Assembly: GCA_964187785.1 (NCBI GenBank)
Contig: OZ076409.1
Span: 72,728,001-72,792,000, forward strand
Source of the DNA: Amphiscolops sp. MND2022
Taxonomy: Eukaryota
Direction: 5' to 3'
Length of the DNA: 64,000 nucleotides
Shown here: positions 2,713 through 44,307 of the stretch, piece by piece
Layout of the letters: each line of letters begins with the position of its first letter
Position numbering within the stretch: position 1 is the stretch's first letter
Program-made: the position numbers and the translations under genes
Notes under the pieces: model-generated
Seen by the model: the letters and a program-made list of their open reading frames with translations, nothing else
Databases searched by the model: none
What the model was told of the DNA's origin: nothing

Positions 2713-4905
2713 GTGGAGGTTATTTTATAATAATTAATGTGTTTTTTTCCGGAGTTTGTGGCTTTGGAAAAAACAAAAGGCGAGAAATCGTGCACTCCGG
2801 GCTGAACCGTATACACTCAAATTTCGCCCATTTTTTATACGATCTCGAAACCCAGCCGTACGATTTTGCTCAAAATTTGCATGCGGCTACAAAATCAGAT
2901 TCTAAGAACTATTTCCTGGTGACATTTTTTTGAAATTTTTGTGTACGTTTCCCCCCCGCCCCCTAAAGGGGTCACTTTTCCCCACTTTTGCACTTATGAG
3001 TCAAATTCTCAAACCTGGTGGATCTGAGCGTATTCCTGACGGGGACAACTTTTAACAAGCGCTCCTCAGTCGACCTTTTTGACTTTTTACTTTGGTGGTA
3101 CGTTCACCCCCCGAGGAGGAAATTGCGTTTTTGTGACTTCCGGTCGAGGCTTTTTTCACCCAAAAATTAGAATTAAGCCAGTTTTGAGCAGGAAGGAGTG
3201 GATTTAAAGTGCCTGTACCCTGCTAAAAATTTGTTGGGCTTGTAGCGATATATCTCATACCAAGTCTGGTTTTCACCCCCAAACCCCCCTTGAGACCAAA
3301 ATTCACCCAAAGTTTTTTACCTCTGTTTGTAGTTTTTTTACCGAATATCGTCATTTCCATGGGTACGGAGTTGAATTAGGGGCTCCTAATAGGGTACCGA
3401 TGTTCAAGTACACTTGCAGTGCAACTGAGTGACCCTTTTTGGGCCTCTCCTGTGTTCGGCAAGGACCGGAAGTGGTGTAACCCCCCCTTTTTTGACGTTT
3501 GTTGACCTTGAGACTCGCGCTTAGATGACGTTTATGTCGCGCAAATCCTACAAACAAGTATTAGGATGTCATGCTAGCCAACTAGAGAGCAGTAAGGGAA
3601 ACAATAATATATCGGAAGTAACCCCCCGTGACCGGAAGTTGTCATTTTTGACCGGAAATGGTCCAAAACCTAGCGTTAAAGCAGTTTTTCATTGCTTTTA
3701 AAGTCAACTTCTTACATTTTTCAATCTGCGCGAGCTTTTCTTCAGGTTCGTTTTTGTTGCCGGTGCACAGCAACGAATATACAACTGTAAAATTTTCGCT
3801 ATAAAATCGTCGGAGAGAGAAATAACGGAATATTTGGAGTTTTTTTCGAAAATATTAGTCTATATCTGTCATTTTTACCCAATGTTATTCAACAGTAGAA
3901 CCACAGATTTTATTCTCTGCCCAAAAATATGCCTAACAAATTCACCTGTCCCTTTGGTTGCAGTTTGAGCATTCTAGCTTTTTCTGGTCACAAGTAAGGG
4001 GACTTGAAAAAGTTTCAAAAACTTTTCCGAAAAATTTTTCTAAACGTCATGTCTCCCAAAGTTAAGAAACTTCCGCACAACTAGGATTACAAGTGAATGC
4101 ACGTGGTAAGACCTCTAATTGGAGAGAAAAATTCAGTTTAGAACGTCTCTTTATCGTAACGTGACGTTAAGAGAAGTTGCTTTGAATGCGAGCTTGATGA
4201 GACGTCGAGAAGTAACAGTGTGTAAATGGAACCTATGTCTCGACAAATACTCATCGGAATACATGAGATGAACCCCAATTACCCTCAATTTCAGTTGCCT
4301 AGTACAACAACGTCTTCCAAGGACCCTTTAATCTTTTTGATAAGCGTTGAAGTCATCAATAGATTGAGTTCGCAAGAAACAATTGAGTACATTCTCATCT
4401 CTCCCCATCGGGTGAGATGAGAATGTTTTTGCTGAAAGCCAGGTACTACGGCCCAATTTTGTTTCATTGCGACGCATTCTGTGCTTTAGCACATAGATAC
4501 TTTTATTCCGTCTCACTTTTTGTATACACTCTGATTTGTTGTTATGAATTTCTCGTCATTACTTTACATAAACTAATTACCATAAAACTTTAACGTCAAA
4601 GCCACATTCATTTAGACACCCACCATTCCGTAGGTATGCCGAGGTATGCCATTCGAAGATGTAGGTCAAACGCAAATGCGATAAAAATAGTGCTGAAAAT
4701 CGGAAACAGTGACAAACAATTTTGACTTTTTGATATTTGTTAGGTTTTCATATGGAACTTACACATCACTGACAATTCAAAACATTCCAGCTGACGCTCA
4801 CATACAAACATCAACGCCCACCGTCTGTGGGCATGCCGAGGCATGCCCTTCGACGACGTATAGCAAATTCCTTTAATATCTACACCCAATTGCGGTAGCT
4901 GCTAG
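2713..4905 (+). repeat. Cassette family B (2193 bp)
   Basis: Homologous to 29770-31960. Type I internal hairpin ~4385-4427, degenerate end box ~4632, canonical end box ~4828. Confidence 0.9.
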
Positions 4906-6193
4906 GTGGCCGGAAATTTTTTTTTTCATCAAAATCTTTGCCATTGGGGGAGGGGCCCCGGATGGCCAGTAGTACGGGATAGCTTCCTACCAAATCCAGG
5001 CGGAAAAAACGTGATTTTGGAAACTAGCCGTCAGAATTTGCTCAAATTTTGCATACGGCTTCCTATGACAATCCTAAGAACTAATCCCTACTGGCATTTT
5101 GCCCAAAAAACGCAAAAAGTTGGTCAAAATCTTAGTTTTTTGGTCAAAAAATGGCGTTTTTTCGAAAAAATTTTTTTTCAGAGACAATTACTCGTAACTG
5201 GGTCACCCAGCGCAAAAACGCCTAGCTGATTTATTGTTGGGCACTTCATGAGGAGTGCGTATACAAATTTTCGTCCAGATCGGAAAAAAAATGACTAAGT
5301 ATTAGACGGAATTCGGACTCATTTTTTCGCAAATTTTTGAAAACCTAGTCTATCTTTGCCGTTTTTTGCCCAGATTTTTTTCCAGGTCCTCTCCTAAAGG
5401 CCTCCCCTGGCCGGTTTACTTCCCAGAAAAACCAATTGGCCCTAAATACGGAGTTTCAGCGTTCTAGCATTCCCGGGCGAAAAGATGTGGGACTTAGAAA
5501 AAATTCAAAATTTTTCAAAAAATTTTTTTTTCGTTTTCCGGCCCCCCAATGAAGGGGAACGACCCCCCAACGAGGATTTTTGGTGAATTCACGTGGAAAG
5601 GCCTTGTTTTGTGGAGAAAATTGCCGTTTAGAGCGACTTTTTATCTTAACTTGACGTTGACCTCTGTCGTTTTGAATTTGATATTAGTATGTGTTGAGCA
5701 TGTGAAAAGTTGATGATTTCAGTTGTTCTCTCGTGTTCAAGCCATTGAGATACAAGCGGTAGTGATCAAAATGTGATTTATCGCAATTTGGTGGTGCTTT
5801 TGGTGTATTTTGATTCTTTTAAATAAAAAGTTGTTCTTTATATATTTGGTGTATTGATTCAAATTAACAAGAAACAGTTGAGTACATTTCATCTCCCCCC
5901 TTGTGGGGGAGATGAGGATGTACCCGCTAAATGACACGCACAATGGCCCACTTTTACTTTTATGCGACGTTTTCTAGGCTTTTGCGCAAGCCCACTAATA
6001 TTTAGACTGGTTTCCTTTTCTTTTACTCCAAAATTTTCCGTACTAACCACCTTACGCACCACCAGCTCAACGTAACATCCGTAACGTCAACGCCACACAC
6101 TCTCACTAACGCCCACCGTCCGTGGGCATGCCGAGGCATGCCCTTCGACGACGTATGCCAAATAGCGCCACAGGGCGCAAACTTGTCCGCTAG
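4906..6193 (+). repeat. Cassette family A (1288 bp)
   Basis: Near-identical copies start at 31961, 34637, 39171, 44797, 50446 and 59599. Confidence 0.92.
6095..6160 (+). other. Conserved subterminal end box (example): CAACGCCCACCGTCYGT-GGGCATGCC-GA-GGCATGCCC-TTCGACGACGTA
   Basis: Perfect 9-bp inverted repeat at 6124-6143. I count 33 intact copies, typically ~45-60 bp upstream of a cassette end. Confidence 0.9.
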
Positions 6194-7467
6194 GTGGCCG
6201 GGAACTTTTTTTCCTGCATTTTTCTGTCCAATTGGGGGAGGGGCCCCAAGTGGCTGTTATCCGGTTTTACTACCTACCCTAAACACGCTCAAAAAATGAC
6301 GATCTCGAAAACCACCCCTTAGATTTTCCTGAAACTTTGCATACAGGCCTAGAATCAAATCCTAAGAACTATTTCCTACTGGCGTTTTTCCGAATTTTTT
6401 CAAAAAGTTGGTCAAAAATGCAACAAAAGTTGCCAATGGACATAAAAAACGCAACTTTTCGACTTTGAGGGCCCATAACTTTTTTCAGAGTGCCCGGAGC
6501 GATTCGCACAATAACCACAATATTGCTCAGCATTGTCGGAGGAGTGCGTGGACGAAGTTTGGGGTCAATCGAATGAAAATTGATTGAGAAATAAACGCAA
6601 ATGTTCGTGCATTTGTTGCAAACACCAGTCTATCTCTGCCATTTTCGCCAAAAATTTTTCCCAGAGCCTTTATAGGAGGCAACCCCTGCCCAAATTTCTG
6701 CCGAGCAAACCCATTTGGCCCTAAATACGGAGTTTCAGCATTCTAGGATTCCCGGGCGAAAAGTTGTGGGACTTAGAAAAATTTCAAAAAAACGCAAAAA
6801 TTGTAAAAAGTAATTTAGGCGCCCCAAAGTCTCAAAACTTCCACACAACTAGTATTGCAAGTGAATGCATGTGGAAAGCACTTGAATAGACAAGAAATAT
6901 GAGCTATAGAACGACTCTGTAGCTTAATCTGACGTTGACTTATAACATTTTGAGTGTGAGCATCCTATAGGATTTTAATGTCAAAAATGAGATTTTGTAA
7001 GTCATGTCTCATCAAAAACTCATCGGAATACGTTCAATCATCCCCATAGCTGTTCAATCACCGTTGCTTAGTAGAGCAACGCCATTTAATGTCTTTGGAC
7101 CCATTTTGAAAATTTTCCTTACCGTCTTATTCGTCCGATATCACGAAACAATTGAGTACATTCCATCTCCCCCCTTGTGGGGGAGATGAGAATGTACTCG
7201 CCAAAGACCTGAAACAATGGCCCATATTGGTTTTTATTTGACTTTTCTCACAATATTGCACACGGATAGCTGTGTTTGGTAAAAGTTTTCCTTTGCACCA
7301 TGTCTCCAGAAGCAAAACCACTTCTTTAGCTTACTACTTCCACTCAAACATCACTAACGTCAACGCCACATACTCGCATCAACGCCCACCGTCTGTGGGC
7401 ATGCCGAGGCATGCCCTTCGACGACGTATGCCAAATAGCGCCGAAGGGCGCCCCCAATTTCCGCTAG
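6194..7467 (+). repeat. Short cassette, variant C (1274 bp)
   Basis: GTG head, core motif, type I hairpin 7154-7199, end box, CTAG. Confidence 0.88.
7154..7199 (+). other. Type I internal hairpin (example): GAGTACATTCCATCTCCCC-loop-GGGGAGATGAGAATGTACTC
   Basis: One per short or B cassette (25 counted), ~200 bp upstream of the end-box position. Confidence 0.88.
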
Positions 7468-10400
7468 GTGGTTGGGGCGTTATTCCCCACGAAGTTCGCG
7501 GCCGCGGGAGACGGGACCCGCGGACCGCCCATCCAATGCAAAAATATACACTCTAAACAGCACCATTATAAACACGATCTCGAAAATGAACCGTAGGATT
7601 GTCTTGAAATTTTGCATACGGATAGAAGCAAAAATTCTAAGAACTTTTTCCTGCTGGCACTTTTCCGAAAAAAACGTCCTTCATGGGTTTTTTTGGGTTT
7701 TTTTGGTTTTTTCTCATCTTTCTCATCTTTGATTAATCAATCACCGAATCAAATGCCATTTTCAGCATGAAGGAATGCACGTAGCGGCAAAGTGCACTTT
7801 TACAAAAATCATCAACGGTCAACGGTCTTTCGAACGGTCTAAAAAAATTTCCCCCCGGGGGCATGCAAAGTGCCGAAAAGTGCCAAAATATTTTTTTGGT
7901 CTGAATCATTTTGATGAAATTGTTGATTTGAGCAGCAGGAACGGTCCGCACGGTCTCGGACCATAAGGTCAAAAATTGTCAGTGAGTTATGGTGACGTCC
8001 AAAATGACATTGGTTGAGCTGTAGGAGGCCTATGAAAAAATTTGAATTTTTTGAGTCTACAATCCGAGCTGAACTGTTACGTATTATGAACTTTTCAGTA
8101 CTATGTTGCCAAAGACCGAGTACAGATAGGTGCATGGGTCAGCCTTATTGAAATGAACATTGGGCACTGGGCTAACGATTGAGTGCAAAAATTATAGCCT
8201 AGTTGCTGTAGTCGAAGAAAAAAATTCTCAGAAGTGTTACTTTCAATTTGTCATGTTGACTCGGAGTTACAAAAAGATGATTTTCTCGCCAACAACGGTC
8301 CGAACGGTCTTGGACCATAAGATCAAAAATTGTCAGTGTGCTATGGTGACGCCCAAAAACCCATCGGAACAAGCGTAGGATGCTTCTGAAAAAATTTCGA
8401 ATTTTTACCTCGGCCCAAGAGTTATTGTGTTACATCGTAACAACATTTCGTGTATGCATATCTCCTGACAGCGTACAGATAGCATCATGGGTCACCTTTT
8501 TGAAAGTGAACGTGGGCCACTGGTGTACTGCATGGTTATAAAAAATTTAGACTAAGTGCTGCATGGCGTGAATAATATGCCAAGATGTGGTATTTACGAT
8601 ATTTTAGCACGACTCGGACTGACAAAAAGCCTATTTCTGCCCCAGCAACGGTCCAAACGGTCATCAAGTATAAGGTCAAAAAATGTCAGTGTGACATTAT
8701 GGCGCCTAAAAACCTACCAGAATAATCGTAGGAAGCTTCTGAAAAAATTTTGAATTTTTACGTGGGCCCGAGAGTTATGATGTTGCATCGTAGCAACATT
8801 TCGGGTATGCATATCTCCCTACAGAGTACAGATAGCATCATGGGTCACCTTTTCGAAAAAGAACGTGGGCCACTGGTCTATCGATTGGTTGTAAAAAGTT
8901 TTCAATCACTGCTGCACGGCGTGAATAAAATGCCAATATGGGATATTTAGCATTTTTTTGCACGACTCGGACCTACAAAAGTCCCATTTCTGCTCCACCA
9001 ACGGTCCGTACGGTCTTCAACCATAAGGTCAAAAAGTGTCAGTGTGCTATGGTGACGCCCAAAAACCCAACAGTACACTTGTAGAGTGCTTCCGAAAACT
9101 TTTGGAATTTTTAGGTGAGTCCGAGAGTTATAGAGAGTTATGTTGTCACATGGTAACTACATTTCGGGAATGTATATCTCCTGACACAGTACAGATACCA
9201 ACATGGGTCATCTTTTGGAAAGTGAACGTGGGCCACTGGCCTACCGAATGGTGATAAAAAGTTTTCACCAGTTGCTACAGGGAGTGATAAAAGTGCTTAC
9301 ATAGTTTACATAGCATTTTTTCAGGCGACTCGGACTTACAAAAAGCTCATTTGCTAGCGAACAACGGTCTGTACGGTCTCCACTCAATGGGTCGAAAATT
9401 TTTTGTGGGCTATGGTGACGCTCAAAAACCCATCAGTTTACTTGTGGGATGATTCTATAAAAATTTAGTGTTTTCGTGCAGACTATGTTACATATTACAT
9501 TAGGAACCGTGTTTTTTCCTCACCAAAATCATGTTTTTGAGTGCCCAAAAGCAATTTTTAAAGCCCAGTAGCCACCTAAAATGTTCTTTTGCATAACATG
9601 GGATGTGAATAACGTCAAGAAAGTGCTCACTATGGATTTGGAGTTATCTCGAAAAAATCAGCTGCCATTAGACGTTACATTACAGAAAATCGTACCTTAC
9701 ATATCGATTCATGGGTTGAGTCAAAAACAGCTAAAGTTCTTTTTCAGTCAATCAATACTGTTTTTTGTTCACAACCAAGTGTACAGCTGACTTCGAAGCT
9801 ATTTTGACCTTCCACAATGGTTATAATGCGATTTTGAGGGACAAAAGGCTTGTTGACAAACAAAATTCCAAGATGAAATTGCTTTCCAAATCATTTTTTG
9901 AAGTATAGGAACGCCATTTTTTGCCGACAACCATCAAATATCCACTTCTCTTGGCCCAGGGGCTTGTGAAAAATACAACTGAGCCTTGACAAGGCACATG
10001 GACCGTAATTCGAGTAGTCATGTACCACAACATTTGCTAATCGATAGCAACTTTTGTTGAAAATTGATACAACATCACATTTTTGGTGAACTCGAAATGA
10101 CAAAATGGAGCTTTACCAGAAACTATTGGCTTTTAGTACAACTCACTGGCACTGTAAGTTACGAAAATACGGTTTACAGTAGTTTCATGCTACTTTTTCA
10201 GAATCTGAGGTACATAAAAATATCATACTGAATAGACAAATAACTTCAACATCGGAATTTTTCCGGATGTGTCACCACCTTTTTGGTATCAGCGGTCCTA
10301 CCAACACTGCTTTTGGTCTAACACTAAACCCAAGGATCAACCAAGATGTATATCAGACTTGTAAAATCAATGCAAGGTCTTTCGACATGTCAAAAGTACT

Positions 10401-12202
10401 GATAAGATGAGAATCTTCTCAAAAATTCATGTTATGTGTCATATTCCATTCCACGTTTTTTAATCGGTGCTTGTCGGTTATAGTATTAACGCTCAACAAC
10501 GAGCTTACTGACAAGAAACAACTTGTTAACAGTTATTAAAAGTATGTATAATTCCACCATGCTCGGTCTTGGCAGATTTTTCATCCCATTAGTTCTTAAC
10601 GTGTAAATTTTACTTCCCAAAAACCCTATTTTTGTCAGGTCGAAATTCGAATTTTCGTGTTTTGATCAATATTATTGTGTCTGACGTAACCTGTGGCCTC
10701 CAAAATACTCAAAAACAATAGTATGACTGCTATCAAATGCTTCAGTGACATGTGGGGCACGTTAACACGTTTTGGTAAGAAAAATTCCACTTCGAAGTGA
10801 AAATTTGGAAGACACATTGTGTCAATAAAAACTGAATACATGAAAAACGTACCTAACTCCCGTCAATTAGTATTGACGTAGTAACTGTGTTGCGAATTAG
10901 AGGTCTATAGAGTGGTGTATGGGAAAACTGTGGCGCATAAAGCGTTGTTCATAACAAAGTTCTTCCAATAACTACAATTGTGTTTTCAAAAGTTTCACTA
11001 TATTTCACATATTCACAGAATGTGATTGATGCTACCTAGTAATGGAAAACCACTGTCGAATGTTCTTTAGTGGACTCAACAGTCCTGAAAATCACAGACA
11101 TACATCACGATTCATAATTATACACTCGAGGCTACACAGTAATTTATTTCCGCTAGTTGCTGATAACTGAATTTCCTGATAGCCTTCCAAGTTGGCCTTG
11201 TGTCAACCTGGGAAGGCTATCAGTACAAAACACAAAGAACACAGCTTGTTGTTGCCTCTAATTTGCTGTTGTTTTCGTTAAGATTTTATGGTACCGTTTC
11301 TTTATAACATGTGGTTAACATAAGACAATTTCTCTCTGTATGGAACGACATCCATTGATAAGAAAGATTACAGTTTTTTAGTTGAAAAAGACCTTGAAAC
11401 TACTGCGCAATCCATGCAATTTATCCAAAACGTTCATTCATTTCAATAATTTGCGTCCCATTGAGCGTCACAAACCACTATACCTCCTTTAACTGACAGT
11501 ACAAAGACACATCATCCTTTGACCGTCCACAGACCGAAGGCGTGGCGAGGCACGCCTTGCGAAGACCTTTGGCAAAACAGTACTAACGTCCGTTCGTGAC
11601 GCATACGAAAAACTATTTTATTTTCAACAATCGTCATAAAGCATATTTGTTATATCGGCCTTTCGTTACATTTGTGCAATGATACCTTTATCAGTGAAAT
11701 ATTAAGTTATACATAGGTAACTGCAGTAACTTCGTGATAACCAAAGTGATATCAAAATGTTGTTACATAAATATTTCTGACACAGCGGAATTCCGAAGTG
11801 TCATTAGGCACTTTTTCAGTGCTCGTTAGGAAAGCGAGCACTTTTGCTTGGACCAAACATGCTCGTATCAGACTGGTCATGTGAAGGCAAGTAACGGAAT
11901 CGAAACAATGTTCCTCATCAACTTTTTGGTAGCGTCAGAAACACAATGTTTCCTTTTTAATGTCCCCCAGTTGTTTGTTAGCTTCTGTTCATAGAGAATT
12001 GTTTCTGCGCAGACCAAAATATAGCAAGTTATCCAATACGCCTAATAACGGATTTGCCCCACACAGAACTATCACTTAACATTTTTGTATGTTGACATCT
12101 TTTTACCCCGTTGTTCAACAACTCATGCACCTTCATTTCTTCTTCAACAACTAACTCGCCACCTCCTTGTCGTCTCGTGGTTTGTTTAGCCTCCAGCGCT
12201 AG
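7468..12202 (+). repeat. Long cassette family L (4735 bp)
   Basis: Colinear with 17156-21871. Internal ~354-bp repeats, type II hairpin 11178-11221, degenerate end box 11537-11558. Confidence 0.9.
7940..9490 (+). repeat. Internal ~354-bp tandem repeat in L cassette
   Basis: AACGGTCCG.ACGGTCT..ACCATAAGGTCAAAA-like unit starts at ~7940, 8294, 8647, 9000, 9363. Confidence 0.85.
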
Positions 12203-13081
12203 GTGGTCCGGGGCTGTTTTTGCCCCACAAGAACTTTGCGAGGCCTGGGGAGGGTCCCGGGTGGTCCGGGGCTGTTTTTGCCCCACAAGAACTTTGCGAG
12301 GCCTGGGGAGGGTCCCGGAGCCGAGCGCATTATCCAAAATACATCACTAGTCCACCGGGTCCGATTTCGGCGATTTTGGAATCTAACCATACGATTTTAA
12401 TAAAACTTTGCACACATACCTAAAATCAAATTATAAGAACTTTTTTCCTCTGACGTATCATGATTGAAACATTTGTTGAAAAGTTATGTGCAAATGATCG
12501 TGTTTTTTGGCACTTTTTCGCATTTTTCACACAGTAGCTCCACACTTTACGCTATGCATTTGGCCCATTTTTTGCGTGCGCGGCATAAATGATGTCATGT
12601 TTACACATGCCAAAAATTATTTCTCAATTCGCAACAGGAGTGGAGATATGGCGGATAATATTGGCGGAAATTTTAACGAATACGAAAATTTGCACATATT
12701 TGGCCAACATTTGTTTCAAAAATGCGAAAAATTAAAAAGTCCGCGGATTGCGTTGAAACTTGGCACACGTGTAGTAGAACAAATTCTAAGAACTTTTTTC
12801 TTCTGACGTTTTTCCGAAAAATTGCATCTTCAACCTATATTTGCAATATTTCGGGTTTTTTGATTCAAGGTGATTTATCACTCACATATTCAAAGTCCAT
12901 TTTCAGCATGAAGCAACGCAGATACCGGCAATGTGCATATATTGCAAAATCATCAACAGCCAACGGTCTACCGAAAGGTTCAAAAAAATTTTCCCCTCGG
13001 GCCCAATCAAAGTGGCCAAAAGTGGCAAAAGGTTTTTTCCAACTGTATCACCATTACAAAATTGATGATTTGACCAGGAGG

Positions 13082-14280
13082 AACGGTCCGCACGGTCTCG
13101 GACCATAAGGTGAAAAAGTGTCAGTGAGTTATGGTGACGACCAAAATGACATCGGTTGACCTCTAAGAGGCCTCTGGAAAAATTTGATTTTTTTGAGTCA
13201 CGGTCCGAGTTGATCTGTTACGTTCTATGAACAATTCATAATCATGTTACTCATAACCGAGTACAGATAGCACCGTGGGTCATCTTTATCAAAATGAACA
13301 ATGGGCAGCGGTCTAACGATTGAGTGCAAAAAATATACCTTAGTTGCCATAGTGAAAGAAAAAAATTTTCAGAAGTGTTGTTTTCAATTTTTCATGTCGA
13401 CTCGCAGTTACAAAAATGTGATTTTCTCTTCAGCAACGGTCCGAACGGTCTCGACCGATAAGATAAAAATTTGTCAGTGTGACATGGTGGCGCCCAAAAA
13501 CACATCAGAACACTGGTAGGAAGCTTCTGAACGATTTTCGATTTTTCACGTGGGTCCGAGAGTTATAGTGTCACATCGTAACTACATTTCGGGTATGCAT
13601 ATCTCCTCACAGAGTACAGATAGCATCATGGGTCACCTTTTCGAAAAAGAACGTGGGCCACTGGTCTATCGATTGGTTATAAAAAGTTTTCAGTCACTGC
13701 TGCACGGCGTGAATAATATGCCAATATGGGGTATTTAGCATTTTTTTGCACGACTCGGACCTACAAAAGGCCCATTTCTGCTCCACCAACGGTCCGTACG
13801 GTCTTCGACCATAAGGTGAAAAAGTGTCAGTGTGCTATGGTGACGCCCAAAAACCCATCAGTACACTTGTAGAGTGCTTCTGAAAAATTTTGGAATTTTT
13901 AGGTGAGTCCGAGTGTTATAGAGAGTTATGTTGTCACATCATAACTACATTTCGGGTATGTATATCTCCTGACAGAGTACAGATAGGAACATGGGTCATC
14001 TTTTGGAAAGTAAACGTGGCCCACTGGCCTACCGAATGGTGATAAAAAGTTTTCACTAGTTGCTACAGGGAATGATAAAAGTGCTTACATGTGTTACTTA
14101 CCATTTTTTTAGGCGACTCGGACTTACAAAAAGCTTATTTGCTCGCCAACAACGGTCTCTACGGTCTCCGACCATAAGGTCAAAAAAGTTTTGTGAGCTA
14201 TGGTGACGCCCAAGAACCCATCAGTTTACCTGTAGGATGATTCTGAAAAAATTTGTTTTTTTCCAGTTCACTATGTTAGA
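13082..14280 (+). repeat. Internal ~354-bp tandem repeat
   Basis: Unit starts at ~13082, 13435, 13788, 14151. Confidence 0.82.
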
Positions 14281-16114
14281 TATTACATGGCGAACCGTGT
14301 TATTTTTCCAACAAAATTATGTTTTTGAGTGCCCGAAATTAGTTTTTAAAGCACAATAGCCACATAAAATGTTGTTTTGCATAACATGGGATGTGAATAA
14401 CATGAAAAAAGTGCCCACTGTGGGTTTGGGGTCATTTTGAAAAAATCAGCTGCCATTGGACGTTACACATCAGAAAATCATACCTCACATATCAATATAT
14501 GGGTTGAGTGAAAAATAGCTTAAATGATTTTTCAGTCAATCAAGACCCTTTTTTGTTCACAACCACGTGTACAGCTGACGTTGAACGCATATTGATCTTC
14601 CGCAATGGTTACATTACGATTTTGAGTGACAAAAGCCCCGTTGACAAACAAAATTCCAAGATAAAGTTTGTTTCCAAATCATTTTTTGACGTATACGACC
14701 GCCAATTTCTGCCCACACACATCAATTATCCACTTCTCTTAGTCCAGTGGCATGTGAAAAACACAACTAGGCATTGACAATCCACATACACTATAAATCG
14801 AGTAGTCATGGGCAACAATATTTACAAATCAGTAGTGAAATTTGTCTAAAATTGATAACACATCACAATTTTGTTGGAATCAAACTAGCAAAATGGAGGT
14901 TTATCAGCAACTTTTGGCTTTCACAGCAACCCACTGGCCCTGTAATATAGGAAAAGGGTGTTTACCGAACTTTTAAGGTTATATTTCAGAGTCTGAGGTA
15001 GCTAAAAATATCATACTGAAGAGACGCATGACTTCAACTTCAGTATTTTTCCCGATGTGTCAGCACTTTTTTGGTATCGGCGGTCCCACCAATACTGTTT
15101 TTGGTCTGACACTAAACCTTAGGATCAACCAAGGTGGATGCCAGACTTGAAAAATCATTGCAAGGAATTTCGACATGTCAAAAGTAGTGATGACAGGAGA
15201 TATTTCCCAAAAATTCCAGTTATTTGTCAAGTTCCATTGAGCCTTTTTTAATCGGTCCTTGTCGGTTATGGTATTAACGCTCAACAACAACCTCACTGAC
15301 AACAAACAACTTGGTTATAGTTATAAAAAGTATTTATAATACAACCATGCTCGGTCTGGACAGGTTTTTCATCCCATTCGTTGTTAACAAGCAAATTTTT
15401 TTCCCCAAAAACCCAATTTTTGACAGGTCGAAAATTGATTTCCCGTGTTTTGAACAACATTATTGTGTCTGACGTAACCTGTGGCCTCCAAAATACTGAA
15501 AAACAGATATATGACTGGTATCAAATGCTTCATTGACATGTGAGCCACGATAACACGTTTTGCAAAGAAAAATTCAACTTTTAAGTTAAAATTTTGAAGA
15601 CACATTTTCATAATAAAAACAGAATTCATAAAAAGTAACTTATTTCCCGTCAAATACTATTGATATACTATCAGTGTTGCTAATATGAGGTCTATACAGC
15701 GGTGTATGGGAAAAATGTGGCGCATAAAGCATTGTGTAACACAAAACTTTCCAAAGTACTGCGCATTTTTCACTGTACTTTTTGGACTCTATGACAAAAA
15801 TTTGATAGTGTAAACATCAATGAGCAGTTCAATTTAGTACGATTATTCAACTGTGCATATGTTTCAAAGTGCACGATCTTTCTGTTGTTCCAAAATCCTT
15901 TGTTACGGCTGAAAAGATTCATATGTTTTACAACGCAATGTTCATTAAAAGATAAATTAGCAAAGACTGAATCAATTTTACAAAACCTATCAAACTTCTC
16001 AATACGTCTTTCAGCACTTGGATTTTGCAGACTATATAGATCTGATTTGCATTTTTATAAAGACATTATAACTGAATCTTGCATTTTTATAAAGAACTTA
16101 TAAAAAAATTTCAT

Positions 16115-16155
16115 GATAGCCTTCCAAGTTGGCCTTCGGCCAACTTGGAAGGCTA
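16115..16155 (+). other. Type II internal hairpin (example): TAGCCTTCCAAGTTGGCC-TTC-GGCCAACTTGGAAGGCTA
   Basis: Perfect 18-bp inverted repeat here. Variants at 1688, 11178, 20866, 29187, 34286, 37436, 44336, 49985, 57889, 59248, 63509. Confidence 0.88.
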
Positions 16156-17155
16156 GCACTCCAAATACCAAAAAACAGGAGTTCCTTTATTCTCAAAATA
16201 GCTGTGGACAGTTTCATTCAACATTCTTTTCTCACGTTAATTGATAAATTCAGACCATAAACATTTCCATTCGCTATAAGGAGATCATAATTGAGTTCCA
16301 TAAAAACATCTTTCATTGTGTCGCTTAAAAATACCATAAAAACTAACTTGAAACATATGAATCGTATGTGGAACGTACATTCTATTTACCAGTGAGTGTC
16401 TACCCTTATTGGTTCCACCAAATCCTCTACCCCTCCACTAGACAGTACGTTACATCATACGTTGATGTATTTCACAGTGGTGACATAGGGCCAAAAAAAA
16501 ACGAAATGGAGTGTATGCATTGCTAATGTTATTAAGTCAGCCAATTGTGGTAGGAAAGGTTCAATACTACGAAAAATATCTATTCCAACTGACAATGATT
16601 TGGGGCAAACACATGGCACACAAAAATACCTCAATAATTTTCACCAATCAATTTCTTCCACAAAAACTTTTGTGTCCGATGGTGTATAATTTCCTAATTT
16701 GGAATCAGCCAGTTAGTCATTTTCGCATCTCAGCTCGGTCATAACAGAGCGTTCTTTTATGAAATTGTCTCTACCCAAATTCACGTAACGAGGCTGCTAC
16801 GTCCCCTATTTGGAGTGTTATTAGTGTTTATAAGGGATTAATCACTCTAATGAACATATACTTCTAATGTTGAAACTCTTTCACTTTTCTTTGTAAATTG
16901 TTAAAGTAGAACATTGCTGTTATTCAGCAGGAACTCGCTTTGGCTTGCAGAATGATGGAAAATAAATGACAAGTCGCCCTGTAAGGCACCACGTGTCGTG
17001 GGGATGACAAATATGAAATAAGTTGAACACAACAAAGACTACTTTTGTCAACAGAAGGGAAAACGAAAATTTTAATTATGAAAATTTTTATGTTTTTTAA
17101 TACACATTTTCCTCGCATCTCGGCAGTGCAACTGCAACAACCTCGCCTCCACTGG

Positions 17156-20100
17156 GTGGTTGGGGCGTTATTCCCCACAGGGGTCGCGGCCGCGGGGAGG
17201 GCCCCGACTGGCCGCGCTTATGGTGCAAGATTTATACCTACCGCAAGTGCGCAAAAAAAGTACGAAATCGGAAATGAACCATAGGATTTCCTTGAAACTT
17301 TGCACACAGGTAAAAGAGAAAATTCTAAGAACTTTTTCCTACTGGCACTTTTCCGAAAAAAAAGTCCTTCATGGTTTTTTTTGGGTTTTTTTGGTTTTTT
17401 CTCATCTTTCTCATCTTTGATTAATCAATCACCGAATCAAAGGCCATTTTCAGCATGAAGGAATGCCCGTAGCAGCAAAGTGCACTTTTACAAAAATCAT
17501 CAACGGTCAACGGTCTTTCGAACGGTCCAAAAAAATTTCCCCCGGGGGGCATCCAAAATGCCGAAAAGTGCCAAAATATTTTTTTGGTCTGAATCATTTT
17601 GATGAAATTGTTGATTTGAGCAGCAGGAACGGTCCGCACGGTCTCGGACCATAAGGTGAAAAATTGTCAGTGAGTTATGGTGACGACCAAAATGACATTG
17701 GTTGAGCTGTAGGAGGCCTCTGAAAAAATTTGAATTTTTTGAGTCTACAGTCCGAGCTGAACTGTTACGTATTATGAACTTTTCAGTACTATGTTGCCAA
17801 TGACCGAGTACAGATAGGTGCATGGGTCAGCCTTATTGAAATGAACACTGGGCACTGGGCTACCGACTGAGTGCAAAAATTATAGCCTAGTTGCTGTAGT
17901 GGAAGAAAAAAATTCTCAGAAGTGTTACTTTCAATTTGTCATGTTGACTCGGAGTTACAAAAAGGTGATTTTCTCGCCAACAACGGTCCGAACGGTCTTG
18001 GACCATAAGATCAAAAATTGTCACTGTGATATGGTGACGCCCAAAAACCCATCGGAACGAGCGTAGGATGCTTCTGAAAAAATTTCGAATTTTTACGTGG
18101 GCCCAAGAGTTATTGTGTTACATCGTAACAACATTTCGTGTATGCATATCTCCTGACAGCGTACAGATAGCATCATGGGTCACCTTTTTGAAAGTGAACG
18201 TGGGCCACTGGTGTACTGCATGGTTATAAAAAATTTAGACTAAGTGCTGCATGGCGTGAATAATATGCCAAGATGTGGTATTTACGATATTTTAGCACGA
18301 CTCGGACTGACAAAAAGCCTATTTCTGCCCCAGCAACGGTCCGAACGGTCATCAAGTATAAGGTCAAAAAATGTCAGTGTGACATGATGGCGCCTAAAAA
18401 CCCACCAGAACATTCGTAAGAAGCTTCTGAAAAAATTTCGAATTTTTACGTGGGCCCGAGAGTTATGATGTTGCATTGAAGCAACATTTCGTGTATGCAT
18501 ATCTCCTGACAGAGTACAGATAGCATCATGGGTCACCTTTTCCAAAATAAACGTGGGCCACTGTTTTATCGAATGGTTGTAAAAAGTTTTCAATAAGTGC
18601 TGCATGGCGTGAAAAATATGCCAAGATGTGGTATTTAGCATTTTTTTCCACGACTCGGACTTACAAAAAGCCAATTTCTGCTCCACCAACGATCCGTACG
18701 GTTTTCGACCATAAGGTCAAAAAGTGTCAGTGTGCTATGGTGACGCCCAAAAACCCATCATTACACTTCTAGAGTGCTTCTGAAAAAAAGTGACATTTTT
18801 AGGTGAGTCTGAGAGTTATAGAGAGTTATGTTGTCACATCGTAACTACATTTCGGGTATGTATATCTCCTGACAGAGTACAGATAGCAACATGGGTCATA
18901 TTTTAAAAAGTAAACGTTGGCCACTGGCCTACCAATTGATGATAAAAAGTTTCCACCAGTTGCTACAGGGAGTGATAAAAGTGCTTACATGGGTTATATA
19001 ACATTTTTTCAGGCGACTCGGACTTACAAAAAGCTCATTTGCTCGCGAACAACGGTCTGTACGGTCTCCACTCATAGGGTCGAAAATTTTTCGTGGGCTA
19101 TGGTGACGCTCAAATTTCCATCAGTTTACTTGTGGGTTGATTCTGTGAAAATTTATTGTTTTCGTGCAGACTATGTTACATATTACATTGGGAACCGTGT
19201 TTTTTTCTCACCAAAATACTGTTTTTGAGTGCCCAAAAACAATTTTTAAAGCCCAGTAGTCACCTAAAATGTTCTTTTGCATAACATGGGATGTGAATAA
19301 CGTGAAGAAAGTGCTCACTGTGGATTTGGAGTTATCTCGAGAAAATCAGCTGCCATTAGACGTTACATTACAGAAAATCGTACCTTACATATCGATTCAT
19401 GGGTTGAGTCAAAAACAGCTGAAGTTCTTTTTCAGTCAATCAAGACTCTTTTTTGTTCACAACCAAGTGTACAGCTGACGTCGAACCTATTTTGACCTTC
19501 CACAATGGTTATAATGCGATTTTGAGGCACAAAAGCCTCGTTGACAAACAAAATTCCAAGATGAAATTGTCTTCCAAATCATTTTTTGAAGTATAGGAAC
19601 GCCAGTTTTTGCCGACAAACATCAAATACCCACTTCTCTTGGCCCAGTGGCTTGTGAAAAATACAACTGGGTATTGACAGGCCACATGGACTGTAATTCG
19701 AGTAGTCATGTGCCGCAACATTTACTACACGGTAGCAAAATTCGTTGAAATATGATGCAACATCACATTTTTGGTGGACTCGAATTGACAAAATGGAGCT
19801 TCAGTAGCAACTATTGGCTACTAGTGCAACTCACTGGCACTGTATGTTAGGAAAATGATGTTTACAGTAGTTTCATGCTATTTTTTTAGAGTCTGAGGTA
19901 CATAAAAGTATCATACTGAATAGACATATGACTTCAACATCGGAATTTTTCAGGACGTGTCACCACTTTTTTGGTATCAGCGGTCCTACTAACACTGTTT
20001 TTGCTCTAACACTAAACCCGAGGATCAACCAAAGTGTATACCAGACTTGGAAAATCAATGCAAGGACTTTCGACATGTTAAAAGTACTGATGAGAAGAGA

Positions 20101-21871
20101 TACTTCTCAAAAATTCATGTTATGTGTCATATTCCATTCCACATTTTTTAATCGGTGCTTGTCGGATACAGTATTACCGCTTATCAACAAGCTTACTGAC
20201 AAAAAAGAACTTGTTAACAGTTATTAAAAGTATTTATAATACCACCATGCTCGGTCTTGGCAGATTTTTCATCGCATTCGTTCTCAACGTGTAAATGTTA
20301 TTTCGCAAAAACCCAATTTTTGTCAGGTCGAAAATCGAATTTTCGTGTTTTGATCAACATTATTGTGTCTGACGTAACCTCTGGCCTCCAAAATACTAAA
20401 AAACAAAAGTATGACTGGTATCAAATGCTTCAGTAACATGTGGGGCACGTTAACACGTTTTGCAAAGAAAAATTCAACTGTGAAGTGAAAATTTGGAAGA
20501 CATATTGTGTCAATAAAAACTGAATACATGAAAAACGTACCTAATTCCCGTCAATTACTATTGATGTAGTAACTGTGTTGCGAATTTGAGGTTTATAGAG
20601 GGGTGTATGGGAAAACTGTGGCGCATAAAGCGTTGTCCATAACAAAGTTTTTCCTATAACTACTATTGTGTTCTCAAAAGTTTCACTATATTTCACATAT
20701 TTACAGAATGTGAATGATGCTATCCAGTAATGGAAAACCTGTGTCGACTCCCCTTTAGTGGACTCAACAGTCCTGAAAATCACAGACATACATCACGTTT
20801 CTTTATTATACGATCGAGGCTACAGAATAATTTATTTTCGCCATTGGCTGATGACTGAATTTTCTGATAGCCTTCCAAGTTGGCCTTGTGTCAACCTGGG
20901 AAGGCTATCAGTACAAAAAACAAAGAGCACAGCTTGTTTTTGCTTCTAATTTACCTGTTATTTCCGTTAGGATTCTATGGTACCGTTTCATTATTGCATG
21001 TGGTCAACAGAAGACAATTACTGTCTTGACATGCATTGAGAAAAAAAGTTAGATTTTAGTTGAAAAAGACCTTGAAACTACTGCGCAATTCATGCAATTC
21101 ATCCAAAAACTTCAATCATTTCATTAATTTGTGTCTTATTGAGCGTCACGAACCACTATACTCCCTTTAACTGACAGTACAAAGACACATCATCCTTTGA
21201 CCGTCCACAGTCGGAAGGCGTGGCGAGGCACGCCTTTCGAAGACCTTTGGCAAAAAAGTACTAACGTCCGTTCGTGACGCATACAAAAAACTATTTTATT
21301 TTCAAATATCGTCAAAACGGCTTTTCGTAACATTAGTGCAATGATACCTTTATCAGTGAAATATTAAGTTATACATAGGTAACTGCAGTAACTTCGTGAT
21401 TACCAAAGTGATATCAAAATGTTGTTACATAAATACTTCTGACACAGCGGAATTCCGAAGTGTCTTTAGGCACCTTTTCTGTGCTCGTTAGGAAAGCGAG
21501 CATTTTTGCTTGGACCAAACATGCTCGTATCAGACTTGCCGGTCATGTGAAGGCAAGTAACGGAATCGAAACAATGTTCCTCATCAACTTTTTGGTAGGG
21601 TCAGAAACACAATGTTTCCTTTTTAATGTCCCCCAATTGTTTGTTAGCTTCTGTTCCTAGGGAATTGTTTCTGCTCAGACCAAAATATAGCAAGTTATCC
21701 ACTATGCCTGATATCGGTTTTGCCCCACACAGAACTATAACCTAACATTTTTGTATGTTGATATCTTTCTACCCCGTAGTTCAACAACTCATGCATCTTC
21801 ATTTCTTCTTCAACAACTAACTCGCCACCTCCTTGTCGTCGTCTCGTGGTTTGTTTAGCCTCCAGCGCTAG
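17156..21871 (+). repeat. Long cassette family L (4716 bp)
   Basis: Diverged colinear copy of 7468-12202; type II hairpin 20866-20909. Confidence 0.9.
17628..19180 (+). repeat. Internal ~354-bp tandem repeat
   Basis: Unit starts at ~17628, 17982, 18335, 18688, 19051. Confidence 0.82.
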
Positions 21872-25693: not shown

Positions 25694-26970
25694 GTGGCCG
25701 GAAATTTTTTTTTTCATCAAAATCTTTGCCATTGGGGGAGGGGCCCCGGATGGCCAGTAGTTCGGCTTGGCTACCTGCAAAATCAGGTACAAAAAAACAC
25801 GATCTCAAAATTGGCCCGTCAGAATTCGCTCATTTTTTGCATGCGGCCCTAGAATCAATATATAAGAACAAAGTCCTGCTGACGTTTTGCCGAAAAAACA
25901 TTTTTTGTTGACCAAAAATAACATTTTTCATGCCAAAATGACCGTTTTTTCACATTTTTCAACTTTGAGAGCTCATATCTCGTTCCCAGGTACCCGGAGC
26001 GGTTCGCACGTGAACTGCAATATTGCTCAGCGTTGTTAACGGAGTGCGTGGACAAATTTTGGTCCAAATTGGACTTAAACTCGGGGAGATATAAACGGAT
26101 TTTTGGGGGTTTCCGGGGTAAATTTTTTAACGGTCCAGCTTATCTTTGCCATTTTTTGGAAAATGTACTCGCCTAAAGGCCTCCCCCTGGCCGAATTTAC
26201 TCCCAGCAAAACCATTTGGCCCTAAATACGGAGTTTCAGCGTTCTAGCATTTCCGGGCGAAAAGTTGTGGGACTTAGAAAAAATTCAAAAATTTTCAAAA
26301 TTTTTTTTTTCGTTTTCCGGCCCCCCAATGAAGGGGAACGACCCCCCAACTAGGATTTTTGGTGAATCCATGCGAAAATGTCTTTTTTAGTGGAGAAAAA
26401 TGCCGTTTATAGCGACTTTTTATCTTAACTTGACGTTGACTTATGTCGTTTTGAATTTGATATTAGTATGTGTTGAGCATGTGAAAAGTTGAACATTTCA
26501 GTTGTTCTTTCGTGTTAGCCATTGAGATACAAGCTGTAGTGATCAAATTGTGATTTTTTGCGGTTTCGTGGTGCTTTTGGTGTATTTTGATTCTTTTGAT
26601 AAAAAAGTTGTTCTTTATATATTGACAATTTTGTTGTATTGATTCCATTGAACATGAAACAGTTGAGTACATTTCATCTCCCTCTTGGGGGAGATGAGAA
26701 TGTACTCGCTAAAGTCCTAGTACTATGGCCCATTTTTGTTTTTATCAGACGCAGATACTGCCAACGGATACATTTTGTTGGTGCAACTTTCCTGTGCACA
26801 ATGTCTTTAGAAGCTAGAAACTCTATGTCTCTAGCTTACTTCTCCTACAAATTCGTCACCAACGTCAACGCCACACACTCTCACTAACGCCCACCGTCTG
26901 TGGGCATGCCGAGGCATGCCCTTCGACGACGTATGCCAAATAGCGCCACAGGGCGCCCAATTTTGTCTAG
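25694..26970 (+). repeat. Short cassette with family-A head and mosaic body (1277 bp)
   Basis: First ~68 bp match family A, then it diverges; the 3' half is a more distant A relative. Confidence 0.85.
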
Positions 26971-29769
26971 GTGGCGGGGGGCTGTCCCCAATAGAATATA
27001 GTGAGGTAGGGTAGGGTTCCCTACCGAACATTCAGTACTGAAAGACTCTTGTAGTATGAAAATTTTTCGATGTTTTGAGACCGATTTCGGATTCCACCCG
27101 TCAGAAGTTTATGATTTTTTGGCCCCCACCCAGATTTTGGGCACTGATCGCCCCCCACCAGGTTCCATACCCGTGGTTTCGTTGTGACGGGTACACGAGC
27201 GACCGTTAGGGGTCAATCAGGGGGTAAAATTTATAAAAGTGTGAATAACTTTTCCCCCCGTCGTTTTAGCAGGTCCGGTCACTAGTAAAGGTTTGTTGGG
27301 CATCATGCAGTGGGTACGGGGGGCCAAACAAAAATTTTCTATCATGCACCGTTACGGACTTGGCCCCCCGCCCAAACCGCTATTTTACCGGAAATTGCAC
27401 TTTTTGAACGGGAAGGAGTCGTCTGAGCGCGGAGTCGTTTGGTAATGTTTTGTAGAGCATCTGAAGACGTGGTGGGGGACATGTAGTTTGCCGACCCCAG
27501 TTTACCCCTCGGACGGGAAATGACCGTTATGTTAGTTTTAAAATTGCCCCCCGTCAACTTTAACCGCTATTTCTGGTGTGAAGGAGTCGGAACAGCGTGT
27601 CGGGTGCTATATATCAAAAGTAGCTTTAAACAAGGACCTATCAGAAACATGTGGTTTGGGACCCTTTGAACGGACCCGTTAGCCGGAAATAGGGTGACCG
27701 CCCCCTTTTTCTGCGGTTAAAATTGTAAAACGGGCATTGAAGTGGAATTATCTTGGAAACGCGTGGAGCAATCGTGTCCATCACTCCTACAAGGTTTCAT
27801 ACCCATGACATGGTGTCTTCAGGGGGGCAAACAGATCAGCGCTATCTATCACCGTTACGGACTTTGCCCCCCAGCCTAACCGCTATATTACCGGAAACTG
27901 CCCTTTTTGACCGGGAAGGAGTCGTCTGAGAGTGGAGTCGTTAAGTAATGTTTTGTAGAGCATCTAGAGACGTGTTGGGGGACATGTAGTTTGCCGACCC
28001 CTGTTTACCCCTCGGACGGGAAATGACCGTTATGTTAGTTTTAAAATTGCCCCCCGTCAACTTTAACCGCTATTTCTGGTGTGAAGGAGTCGGAATAGCG
28101 TGTCGGGTGCTACATATCAAAAGTAGCTTTAAACAAGGACCTATCAGAAACATGTGGTTTGGGACCCTTGGAACGGACCCGTTAGCCGGAAATAGGGTGA
28201 CCGCCCCCTTTTTCTGCGGTTAAAATTGTAAAACGGGCATTGAAGTGGAATTATCTTGGAAACGCGTGGAGCTATAGTGTCCTTCACTACTACAAGGTTT
28301 CATACTCAAGATACGGTGCCTTCAGGGGGGAAAACAGATTACCGCTATATATCACCGTTACGGACTTGGCCCCCCAGCCTAACCGCTATGTTACCGGAAA
28401 TGTCATTTTTTGAGCCAAAAGGGTTAGTCCCAGCGTGGGAACGTCAGGTAACTTTATGTAGAACTCAATGAGACGAGTTGGGGGATATGGTTTCAGTCAC
28501 CCCCCGTTGACCCGTTAGACCGGAAACGACCGTTATGTAGTGAAAAATGTAATTTTTATACTTTTTGAAGGCCATTTAGGGCAGGAAGTATCGGTAATAT
28601 GTCTTTGGACAGTATACAATGAAAGTTTTGGTGTGAAACAAGCAATCTGAAATATCCGTTATTATGATTCGGAAGTCACACTAACAGCGAAAATGACCGT
28701 TATGTAGTGAAAATTTTTTTCACATTTTTTTTGCTTTCGATAGGTCCTTCAAGCCAAGAAGTAGCTGTATTAGGTCTTTGGCCACTTTATGATGATTGTG
28801 GTGTTGTGAGATGACCGTACGAACTTGACCTTTATAATGCCCCTGAAGTTGCTGCGGCACGAGAAATTTCAGAAAGTTTGTCTTTTCTGTGTTTTGTTGG
28901 AATAAACATTTAATTTCATTAAACCAATGTGCATTCAGGGTGTTTAGAAAGCTTCAAGAAAAGAATTTAATAGGAAACATGGCGGTGAGAAATAACAAAT
29001 TGCCACGTAAATCCAACCCCCGTTGGGGAATAAATGTAATAAATTGTTTTGGAAGTGCCAATCGACGTGTATTTGCGGATCATAGCCACGGTATTGTCTA
29101 TTCGTGTTTCTTTTTGAAGACTTTGAACATTTTCACTTTATCAGCTTGAGGTTTTAACTCTATATGCTTAATAACCGTTACAATATGATAGCCCTCAAGT
29201 TGACCTTGTGTCAACTTGAAAGGGCTATCCTTTCACAACTGCGCAGCAACAGTGTGATTGAGTGATTTAGTTATTATCCAAGGCCAATTTGAACTTCAAC
29301 AAGATTTTAACCACAATATTTAAAACTATTCATATGATTCTTTCAAAAGGGTAAATATTTAACTAATATTTGACAAAAAAACTCCAACCTTTAATTTGTG
29401 GACCGAATAGTAGGAAAACCATGTTTCTTAACGTTGTTGGATGAAATTCAAAATGATGCTTTTAAAAGAATAACAATTCTTGACACTATATATTTTTTCT
29501 ATTTTCCAATAAACTATTTTTCCAAAAGTCTATTTTTCCAATAAACATTGTTGATTGATGCCCATTCATAGTGACTGGAAAGTTTTACCAACTGTGGTGT
29601 TTTTTTTTAATCAGAGGTGAAACCGCTCCCTACCGTCGCATAATGTAATTCAAGCCGACGCCCACATGCCAACATCAACGCCCACCGTCCGTAGGCATGC
29701 CGAGGCATGCCTTTCGACGACGTATGCCAAATCACGCCCCTGCGAGGTCACTAAAGCGGTAGCGGCTAG
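26971..29769 (+). repeat. Cassette family G (2799 bp) with ~503-bp internal tandem repeat
   Basis: ACCGTTACGGACTT..CCCCC at 27348, 27851, 28354. Type II hairpin 29187-29229; variant end box 29693-29712. Confidence 0.87.
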
Positions 29770-33248: not shown

Positions 33249-34636
33249 GTGGTTGGGGCAGTCCCCAGAACGCACAAGGAGGCGCGGGGAGGGTCCTGCG
33301 CCGACGTAGAATAATTTCATATAATACTAGTATCCTACATGGGTGTTTTAGAAGCGATTTTGGAATCTAACCGTAGGATTTGGATAATTTTTTGCATGCG
33401 GCCATAACTCGAAATTCTAAGAACTTTTTCCTACTGTCATTTTCCCCGCAAATTGTTTTTTGTTGACTTATGGCCGAAAAACCGGAAATAACGTCCTTTT
33501 TAGACGTTATATCCGAAGTGTCGACTTAACTTTTTTCCAGGGCACGCTAGCGTTCTCGTTCACTTTTACACTTAGTTGCAGCATCTCAAAATACAACTGG
33601 TGGGAAATTTTGGTTGCATTCGGATCACCCCCCACCGAGATAGAAGGGTTTCCCCCTCCAGTTTTACCCCCCAAATTTGCAAAAAAGCCAATTTTGAGCA
33701 TGAAGCCGAGGATTTAGCGTACCTGCACCCCTCTGATGTTTTGTTGTACGTTTTGAGGTCAACCTGATGACATGTGTGGTTTTCACCCCCAACCCCCCCT
33801 GGGACCGGAAATGACACTTTTTTGTGTTTTTTGGCAGAATTTAGCCTTTTTCATTATTAGGCAGTCGTTTTAAGGACTCTTAGCAGGATATCGAAATTGA
33901 AATACGACCTGATCACAACCCAGTGACAACATGTTGGCCACTTGGAGGTATCATCATGACCGGAAGTGGGGTCAACCCCCCTTTTTGTGACCGCTTTTTG
34001 ACCTTGTGCACAAAAATGCCAACAACTTGAGGCCTAATGACGCATTCAAATCTGTACAAAGATAAAATGTTAGACAACCGAAGTCCCGGAAGATCTTTAG
34101 CATATACCGGAAGTTACCCCCCATGACCGGAAGTTACCCAATGTGACCGGAAATGGTCCAAAAATTAATGTAAAGTTGAATTTTTTACTATTTCAAGACC
34201 ACTTCATTGAACATTTTCATTCCCAAAACTAGCGTACTGGCTTGTTTTGCTGAATTTGTGGAAATTGATGAGCTCTATCACCCCCGATAGCCTTCGAAGT
34301 TGACCTTGCGTCAACTTTGGAGGCTATCGATACTGAAAATGAACAACAAAGTACATTGTTGCTTTCGGTTTTTTCCCGTTGTTTTGCCTCAAACATTCTT
34401 GAGACATATACATGGCCGTTAGTTGAAATCAATATTTAGCCCATGTTATAGCTGGAGCAGCGAAGCGTTACACAGACTAGTGTGGGTTTGAAATTACAAT
34501 TATTAAATTAACAACTGACCGTCTTAGTCAACTCCACACATTCATACCAACGCCCACCGTCTGTGGGCATGCCGAGGCATGCCCTTCGACGACGTATGAC
34601 GAATCCACTCGAACGACACCCGCAGTCCTCAGCTAG
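33249..34636 (+). repeat. Cassette family H (1388 bp)
   Basis: Homologous to 58212-59598; type II hairpin 34286-34328. Confidence 0.9.
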
Positions 34637-44288: not shown

Positions 44289-44307
44289 GCGTTAACGCGT
44301 TATAAAT

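Follow-up and report, generated by a model that had tools for sequence, protein, structure and literature searches.

Our analysis indicates that the window, by which we mean the whole 64-kb stretch of DNA analysed (positions 1-64000), is a single head-to-tail array of cassettes, 35 complete and two cut, that meet at 36 joins, all of them on the + strand; neither end of the array lies inside the window, and we saw no solo copy and no empty site there. The cassettes abut with exact boundaries in a core of 7-8 nt, their order is shuffled at that core, they have one orientation and they have no coding capacity. We regard these parts as established, and the architecture as real, unusual and well beyond chance. 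On balance we favour the explanation that the cassettes are non-autonomous rolling-circle elements (HUH, Helitron-like) with non-canonical 5' ends, because they end in CTRG, have a 5' hairpin whose arms co-vary, and carry repeats spaced ~19.5 nt apart, central tandem repeats and a doubled 5' end.

Cassette families and the order in which they are joined

Complete cassettes measure 1,069-4,953 bp (n = 35). Over their full length the 21 that fall between 1,264 and 1,292 bp are 62-100% identical, and those outside this group have mainly their ends and some internal blocks in common; copies within one family differ by 0-10%. Each join is marked by CT[A/G]GGTG (32 CTAG and 4 CTGG). The window has a GC content of 41%, and CpG depletion is absent. 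So long a run of non-coding repeats, 64 kb, suggests that the DNA comes from a eukaryote and probably from an invertebrate. Cassette c02 (4906-6193; 1,288 bp) belongs to family A, which has seven copies in the window at 94-100% identity, and its neighbour c03 (6194-7467; 1,274 bp) is 67% identical to it; like the main features located below, both are on the + strand. The long cassettes c04-c06 (7468-21871; 4.7-5.0 kb) have tails without the dyad described below and contain internal tandem repeats of 353/363 bp (8258-9436, 13423-14255 and 17946-19114; 3 of the 35 cassettes). An internal repeat of ~500 bp occurs in c11 (26971-29769), and c05 has a second copy of the head core at 12745-12830, with no head hairpin before that copy.

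Several cassettes have composite bodies. A family A head sits on a patchwork body in c10 (25694-26970), and c27 (51733-53014) has a head common to c28-c30, yet is 85% identical overall. In two others, c21 and c25, a c20-type cassette that is ~25 nt short at its end is fused to the final ~490 bp of a c35-type one; at the fusion point (44285-44310, and the same place in c25) lies a filler of ~19 nt, apparently locally templated, which looks like the product of end-joining repair. Moreover, a block of four cassettes (39072-51739) is duplicated with a period of ~5.6 kb at 96.5% identity, and some tails have been swapped at the dyad. Given these mosaic bodies, the block duplication, the deletion fusion and the swapped tails, ordinary array turnover acts on top of unit-wise insertion.

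The switch from one family to the next is sharp. When joins with the same upstream family are compared in pairs, 25 of 28 pairs lose identity 3-4 nt to the right of the cut, and where the downstream family is the same, 17 of 18 pairs lose it 1-7 nt to the left. The sequence C-N-R-G-G-T-G-S is invariant over 38 sites, and a shared stretch of this length would not suffice for homologous exchange. A restriction-ligation artefact can be ruled out, since four of the joins read CTGG and CTAG is left intact at internal sites.

The order of the families is likewise free. The 36 joins comprise 32 distinct tail/head pairs drawn from 20 tail types and 22 head types, and family A, with its seven copies, is followed by seven different heads and preceded by five tail types. 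Over 29 of the 36 joins, linkage across the cut is absent (Spearman 0.03, p=0.23), as against 0.45-0.47 between tail segments and 0.30 at the head start (p=0.001 in each case). Pairs that are near-identical in the last variable tail segment have the first head segment also in common in only 6 of 31 cases, whereas the upstream steps keep their linkage (24 of 28 and 28 of 30 pairs). Exchange within the flanking conserved blocks would transfer the last 40 and the first 40 nt together, and since these are unlinked, such exchange is disfavoured as the source of the shuffling. Deeper in the head, too, the pre-core segment is weakly linked to the body (0.11, p=0.06), and seven pairs have the last 40 nt in common and differ in the segment before the dyad; from this we conclude that exchange has also occurred away from the join.

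Six copies of the bare 8-nt core lie inside cassettes and none has been used, so the target is the end in its context. In c05 the 5' end is duplicated exactly over 58 nt (12202-12318), the first copy ending in CCGG and being followed by GTG; if the same chemistry made this duplication, it would support the cut that had been placed earlier, at CNRG/GTG (the slash marks the cut), or one base to the left. We therefore infer that an enzyme moves whole units and targets resident ends.

Signals on either side of the joins

The sequence-only reading started from the region 6060-6400, where it named paired short repeats, a GC hairpin, CTAG/GTG, two stem-loops and a core motif, and all of these parts are there, the stem-loops as possible folds. 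The region is the join between c02 and c03, two different families, rather than a self-join, and the family switch lies inside the core C-N-R-G/G-T-G-S at 6190-6197 (CTAG at 6190-6193, GTG at 6194-6196). Upstream, two short direct repeats lie ~19 nt apart (6087-6113); the first, at 6087-6094, is exactly TCAACGCC and its partner, at 6106-6113, matches it at 6 of 8 positions. Paired TCAACGCC repeats, as the earlier reading had them, occur as an exact pair in 11 of 36 tails, this join not being one of them, and allowing one mismatch raises the count to 17 of 36. A third related copy lies beyond the dyad, the three peaks being at -47.5, -28 and +11 from the dyad centre, with a spacing of ~19.5 nt.

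The extended dyad itself (6117-6150) consists of a 20-nt palindrome (6124-6143) with outer CGTC/GACG arms and is a candidate terminator hairpin. Between it and the cut lies a small GC hairpin (6165-6178), 11 nt before CTAG, which is the Helitron1 terminator spacing; a hairpin so placed is confined to family A, c03, c10 and c31. Of 23 distinct tails, just 4 have in their last 42 nt a terminator-like hairpin that folds better than shuffles (z below -1). In 31 of the 36 tails the dyad is found 45-58 nt upstream of the cut; the other five (c00, c04, c05, c06 and c34) have no dyad and lack the short repeats as well. Further upstream, a large stem-loop (5881-5924) lies ~315 nt before the end of c02, with z -3.21 for 5860-5960; this type is specific to the 1.27-kb and c01-type cassettes, other groups having another one. 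Two unrelated large subterminal stem-loops (5881-5924, 16114-16158, 34285-34329 and 57878-57942) in fact mark different cassette groups; their distance from the end is ~300-520 nt, or ~1 kb in the long cassettes, and they appear to replace each other. For the 150 nt that begin at 6080 and span the join, folding does not surpass that of shuffles (z -0.66).

On the head side, the two stem-loops that had been proposed fared differently. The first (6199-6216) can form at this join and has no cross-family support (mean z -0.34, with 8 of 22 heads below -1). The second (6228-6253), which has a conserved G-rich loop, is upheld both by its fold and by the co-variation of its arms between families: z falls below -1 in 15 of the 20 heads that could be anchored (2 of 22 had no anchor), as against 2-4 of 21 in control windows, and arms pair better with their own partner than with a swapped one (-6.35 vs -4.00 kcal/mol, p=4e-5; 13 lineages, one head each; controls null). 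RNAalifold on a MAFFT alignment of the head gave only three pairs and zero compensatory changes, probably because the hairpin arms slide against each other so that an alignment-based fold misses the co-variation. The 5' head hairpin is thus under structural selection. In most heads it folds better on the + strand, and a co-varying hairpin points to single-stranded DNA; attC sites are likewise folded single strands. Beyond it lies the conserved head core (~6300-6390), common to all aligned lineages, which in sequence may resemble the cores of Helentrons and DINE-1.

The claim that shared motifs cluster near the junctions is mostly borne out. In three test cassettes, each compared with nine other lineages, the 24-mers that are widely shared fall between +109 and +192 and between -92 and -47, and one subterminal hairpin is also widely shared in two of the three; the exceptions are the five tails without motifs and the unsupported head stem-loop.

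Each half of the tail dyad is itself a palindrome, as is the whole. The p53 consensus consists of two RRRCWWGYYY decamers and is strongest at spacer 0, according to the portion of PMC3032802 that treats spacing; the dyad at 6124-6143 matches two such abutting decamers at 19 of 20 positions. With one mismatch there are 33 p53-type sites in the window where 0.13 are expected, all of them copies of one ancestor and hence not independent. At 2048, 4632, 11538, 21216 and 31690 there are decayed copies of the dyad, within c01, c12 and the long cassettes, and the copy in the long cassettes shows a compensatory change. This change and the outer CGTC/GACG arms would fit a hairpin as well, so the dyad is a candidate p53-family site or hairpin, and may serve in both roles. 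The join at 6187-6198 and 18 others (19 of 36, at one mismatch or fewer) resemble what we take to be the 12-nt CTCF core pattern, although seven positions of that pattern coincide with the join core and a conserved one is different in many heads. Clusters of the words CCGGAAGT and CCGGAAAT (3466-3660, 57330-57745 and 58700-59110), in c01- and c14/c31-type bodies, are presumably ETS-like.

Proposed rolling-circle insertion and its alternatives

The longest ORF with an ATG, GTG or TTG start in the window has 156 aa, and we found no transposase there. None of 57 stop-free frames, a subset of those in the window, reaches the Pfam cut-off, and six have weak matches below it. The best of these, to an influenza PB2 domain in c11 (E 2.4e-5, 24.4 bits, cut-off 25), we treat as chance; the region shares partial homology with non-coding repeats in c35. 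Short decayed coding remnants may nevertheless be present. Rfam yields nothing at gathering score in the window, and three weak matches far below cut-off in 4700-7700.

How could such units have come to stack end to end? If the cassettes are indeed rolling-circle elements, their transposase would be encoded elsewhere and act in trans. It would nick the + strand at RG/GTG and, with the head hairpin and the core as guides, strip away a single unit, stopping at the tail CTRG beyond the dyad. The unit would then close into a circle whose join is the same tail/head site, and strand transfer would insert the circle at a resident copy's join, a site that the enzyme would treat as an origin. Each insertion would remake the target, such that mixed families stack end to end, and block duplication, conversion between bodies and deletion would remodel the array later.

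Comparison with known rolling-circle elements places the cassettes near several groups. In agreement with the Helitron1 3' rule CTRR, all 36 tails end in CTAG or CTGG. However, all 36 heads start with GTG, neither with the Helitron1 5' TC nor with T, the 16-20-nt hairpin ~11 nt before the 3' end is seen in only 4 of 23 distinct tails, the shared dyad lying 45-58 nt upstream instead, and every unit sits between G and G, inside the array, rather than in the A/T target of Helitron1 or the TT target of Helentrons. From the relevant passages of PMC5876387 and PMC11417382, Helitron1 and Helraiser are alike in their 3' CTRR, their head-to-tail joins, the apparent lack of target duplication and the hairpin 11 nt before CTAG, which four tail types have here; they differ in the 5' TC, in A/T insertion and in a terminator spacing that is not general here, and the Helitron1 arrays described in those passages are tandem copies of one element, whereas here the families are mixed and shuffled. 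The Helitron-derived arrays of Xenopus, as summarised in PMC12001565, hold 2-7 copies of one monomer.

The non-autonomous elements DINE-1, HINE and Cg_HINE, as far as the excerpts of PMC4067079, PMC2374699 and PMC7492417 describe them, are likewise without an ORF and have a conserved core near the 5' end, central tandem repeats of 100-500 bp and a 3' palindrome tens of bases from the end. Central repeats are given as typical of non-autonomous Helentrons in the same excerpts (PMC4067079; PMC7492417), and the cassettes have both features, the Helentron-type 3' palindrome in 31 of 36 tails and the central tandem repeats in 3 of 35 cassettes. In contrast to the Helentrons and Helitron2 of those excerpts, with their subterminal inverted repeats of 11-18 bp, the cassettes have none (over the 35 cassettes the longest match averages 6.1 nt, as against 6.5 in shuffles, with a maximum of 9); a 5' microsatellite is unseen, and there is no T/T target. 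By the definitions in the consulted parts of PMC4067079 and PMC11417382, the elements, which work like a non-autonomous Helitron, are outside both Helitron1 and Helentron/Helitron2.

Odd 5' ends have precedents. FoHeli1-5 of Fusarium, in the sections of PMC5148889 that deal with their termini, include elements that start with TGCCT (FoHeli3-5), have a 5' hairpin and yielded a PCR product of joined ends; the doubled 58-nt 5' end of c05 resembles their multiple 5' termini of 31-85 nt, ascribed there to self-insertion. They differ in having asymmetric inverted repeats of 12-16 bp and in being dispersed, and those sections describe no long mixed array. The nearest targeted piling-up is that of the chromosome-end Helitrons of Paramecium (PMC13085455, in part), which are target-specific, pile up in one orientation and have internal satellites; there a telomeric-repeat target separates the copies, whereas here nothing lies between units. 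A Replitron-type RG precedes GTG at 38 of 38 sites, in one orientation. Replitrons, in the sections of PMC10288648 on their insertion, are HUH elements that also lie in one orientation 3' of RG, the RG being confined to the Chlamydomonas family; they occur in plants, algae and protists and differ in their short terminal direct repeats and fuzzy right ends. Here there is no shared terminal direct repeat beyond matches of 5-8 nt that differ between cassettes, and the core cannot be divided between element and target without a flank. The chemistry proposed here, in which an HUH enzyme joins incoming DNA into a resident origin, is that of TrwC and AAV Rep, for which the pertinent part of PMC6049929 reports site-specific DNA integration; these are plasmid and virus systems, and array building is not described in that part.

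Could a recombinase, rather than an HUH enzyme, have built the array? In a Crypton- or integron-like cassette array, circles would integrate by crossover in the 7-nt core common to their own tail/head and the resident join. The invariant core of 7-8 nt has the size of a tyrosine-recombinase overlap, and exact joins and a single orientation would fit. Cryptons, moreover, are presented in the consulted sections of PMC3212892 as having no TIRs, 4-6-bp direct repeats, proposed circles and non-autonomous animal copies; the shared core could be read as such a direct repeat, and animal Cryptons have also been reported there without terminal repeats. However, Crypton arrays are not described in those sections, and a Crypton or tyrosine-recombinase att site has inverted arms of 11-13 bp round a 6-8-bp spacer (PMC3212892), whereas there are no such arms here (joins and self-joins score 5.8 of 12, random positions 6.1). 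Information content drops to 0-0.9 bit within 5 nt to the left of the core, and the co-varying hairpin points to single-stranded DNA, so we think this route improbable. Of the two layouts that the earlier reading had offered, a rolling-circle origin or a recombined attachment site, the former fits better. A similarly low probability attaches to a complex satellite of dead elements, shuffled within the chromosome by unequal exchange at a join hotspot, with no free units. The 5.6-kb block duplication, the mosaic cassettes and the c21 and c25 deletion fusions are ordinary turnover of just this kind, and the 21 of 35 units of 1,264-1,292 bp all align end to end at no less than 62%; yet homologous exchange would transfer the last 40 and the first 40 nt together, and these are unlinked, and it would have to account for seven near-identical A copies with seven neighbours.

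Less probable again, in our judgement, is that a mixed concatemer, formed outside the chromosome by a Rep that switches between small circles at a common origin, as in a multipartite minicircle or satellite-DNA replicon, integrated in a single event; this would be the strongest version of what the sequence-only reading had proposed. Uniform unit size, a common origin-like region, the same orientation and exact joins are what it would produce. Against it, four motif patterns from the window have no match in 2.9 million viral contigs and two cassettes (4906-7467) have none among phages and plasmids, none of the 35 units is coding, the tail of a unit is not adapted to its own head, and the 0-10% divergence within families suggests arrival over time. 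We consider it very improbable that the units are RNA-based, whether as intron-like GT...AG cassettes with AG/GT recursive splice points or as target-primed retro-copies. The start is GT everywhere, the end is AG in 32 of 36 tails and, for most heads, the + strand gives the better fold of the hairpin; however, 4 of 36 tails end in GG, none of the 35 units is 5'-truncated, there is neither a poly-A tail nor an Rfam match, and after GT come G and then G or C, which is not what we take to be the donor consensus.

Circles, relatives and wider significance

The join stands as a functional boundary with shared signals on both flanks, and the array as a record of unit-length insertions, much as the sequence-only reading had proposed. 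Its argument for circles, namely that circularising any cassette rebuilds one origin-like region, does not carry the same weight, since it holds for any head-to-tail array, in which every join already is that region; "any cassette" is moreover too strong, 5 of 36 tails being without the motifs. The circle sizes it predicted were ~1.3-5 kb; the units run from 1.07 to 4.95 kb. Circles are expected from the HUH reading while the transposase is active, and exact CTAG-to-5'-end joins are reported for Helraiser circles, along with transposase cleavage of such joins (PMC5876387, in its account of circles). We consider it reasonably probable that free circles, predicted here, arise by one route or another.

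A cassette's own tail and head show no sign of being matched to each other (p 0.13-0.72 for pairing energy and 0.38-0.59 for a stem round the join; 24 representatives, chosen without the deletion fusions c21 and c25, the two cut cassettes and near-identical copies). This is evidence neither for nor against circles, as a shared enzyme would make ends interchangeable. The predicted string of A-tail joined to A-head has no exact match within the window, and same-family joins do occur on the chromosome, between c20 and c21, c24 and c25, c28 and c29, and c29 and c30. A read that joins an A-tail to an A-head would not prove a circle, because a tandem dimer elsewhere could give the same read.

The sole relative found outside the window is a metagenome contig, L001 (1,172 bp), which has a homologous body (~70%), the same tail, ending in CGAG, and a head round CGAG/GTG. 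In its body it comes nearest to the 1.27-kb group, in its head start to c14/c32, which suggests that its join may be mixed too, or that it may be a mosaic monomer. Positions 1-1172 cover almost one unit length across the join and end without overlap, compatible with a circle or an array. Among the genome contigs searched, the tail pattern has no match, and six matches to a 19-nt mid-body pattern show no further likeness to the cassettes and are put down to chance.

A bolder proposal, which we advance only tentatively, is that the cassettes represent a eukaryotic rolling-circle group, GTG...CTRG, so far undescribed. Its transposase would integrate at the joined ends of resident relatives; gene-less families would accrete, shuffled, in one integron-like locus and be released as circles of 1.1-5 kb, possibly under the control of a p53-family site beside the origin. 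The literature that we searched, mostly open papers, contains no mixed, shuffled array with such ends and no eukaryotic transposon array built by origin-targeted insertion; Repbase or Dfam may already list the families.

More generally, tandem Helitron arrays are accounted for as runs of a single element, but a mixed and shuffled array with ~20 tail types, 22 head types and exact joins needs insertion that is targeted to the origin. Such insertion would offer a route from transposons to complex satellites, a safe harbour that the elements make for themselves, and a site-specific integrase with a short target. As the ends are now defined, the missing transposase should be findable in the source genome.
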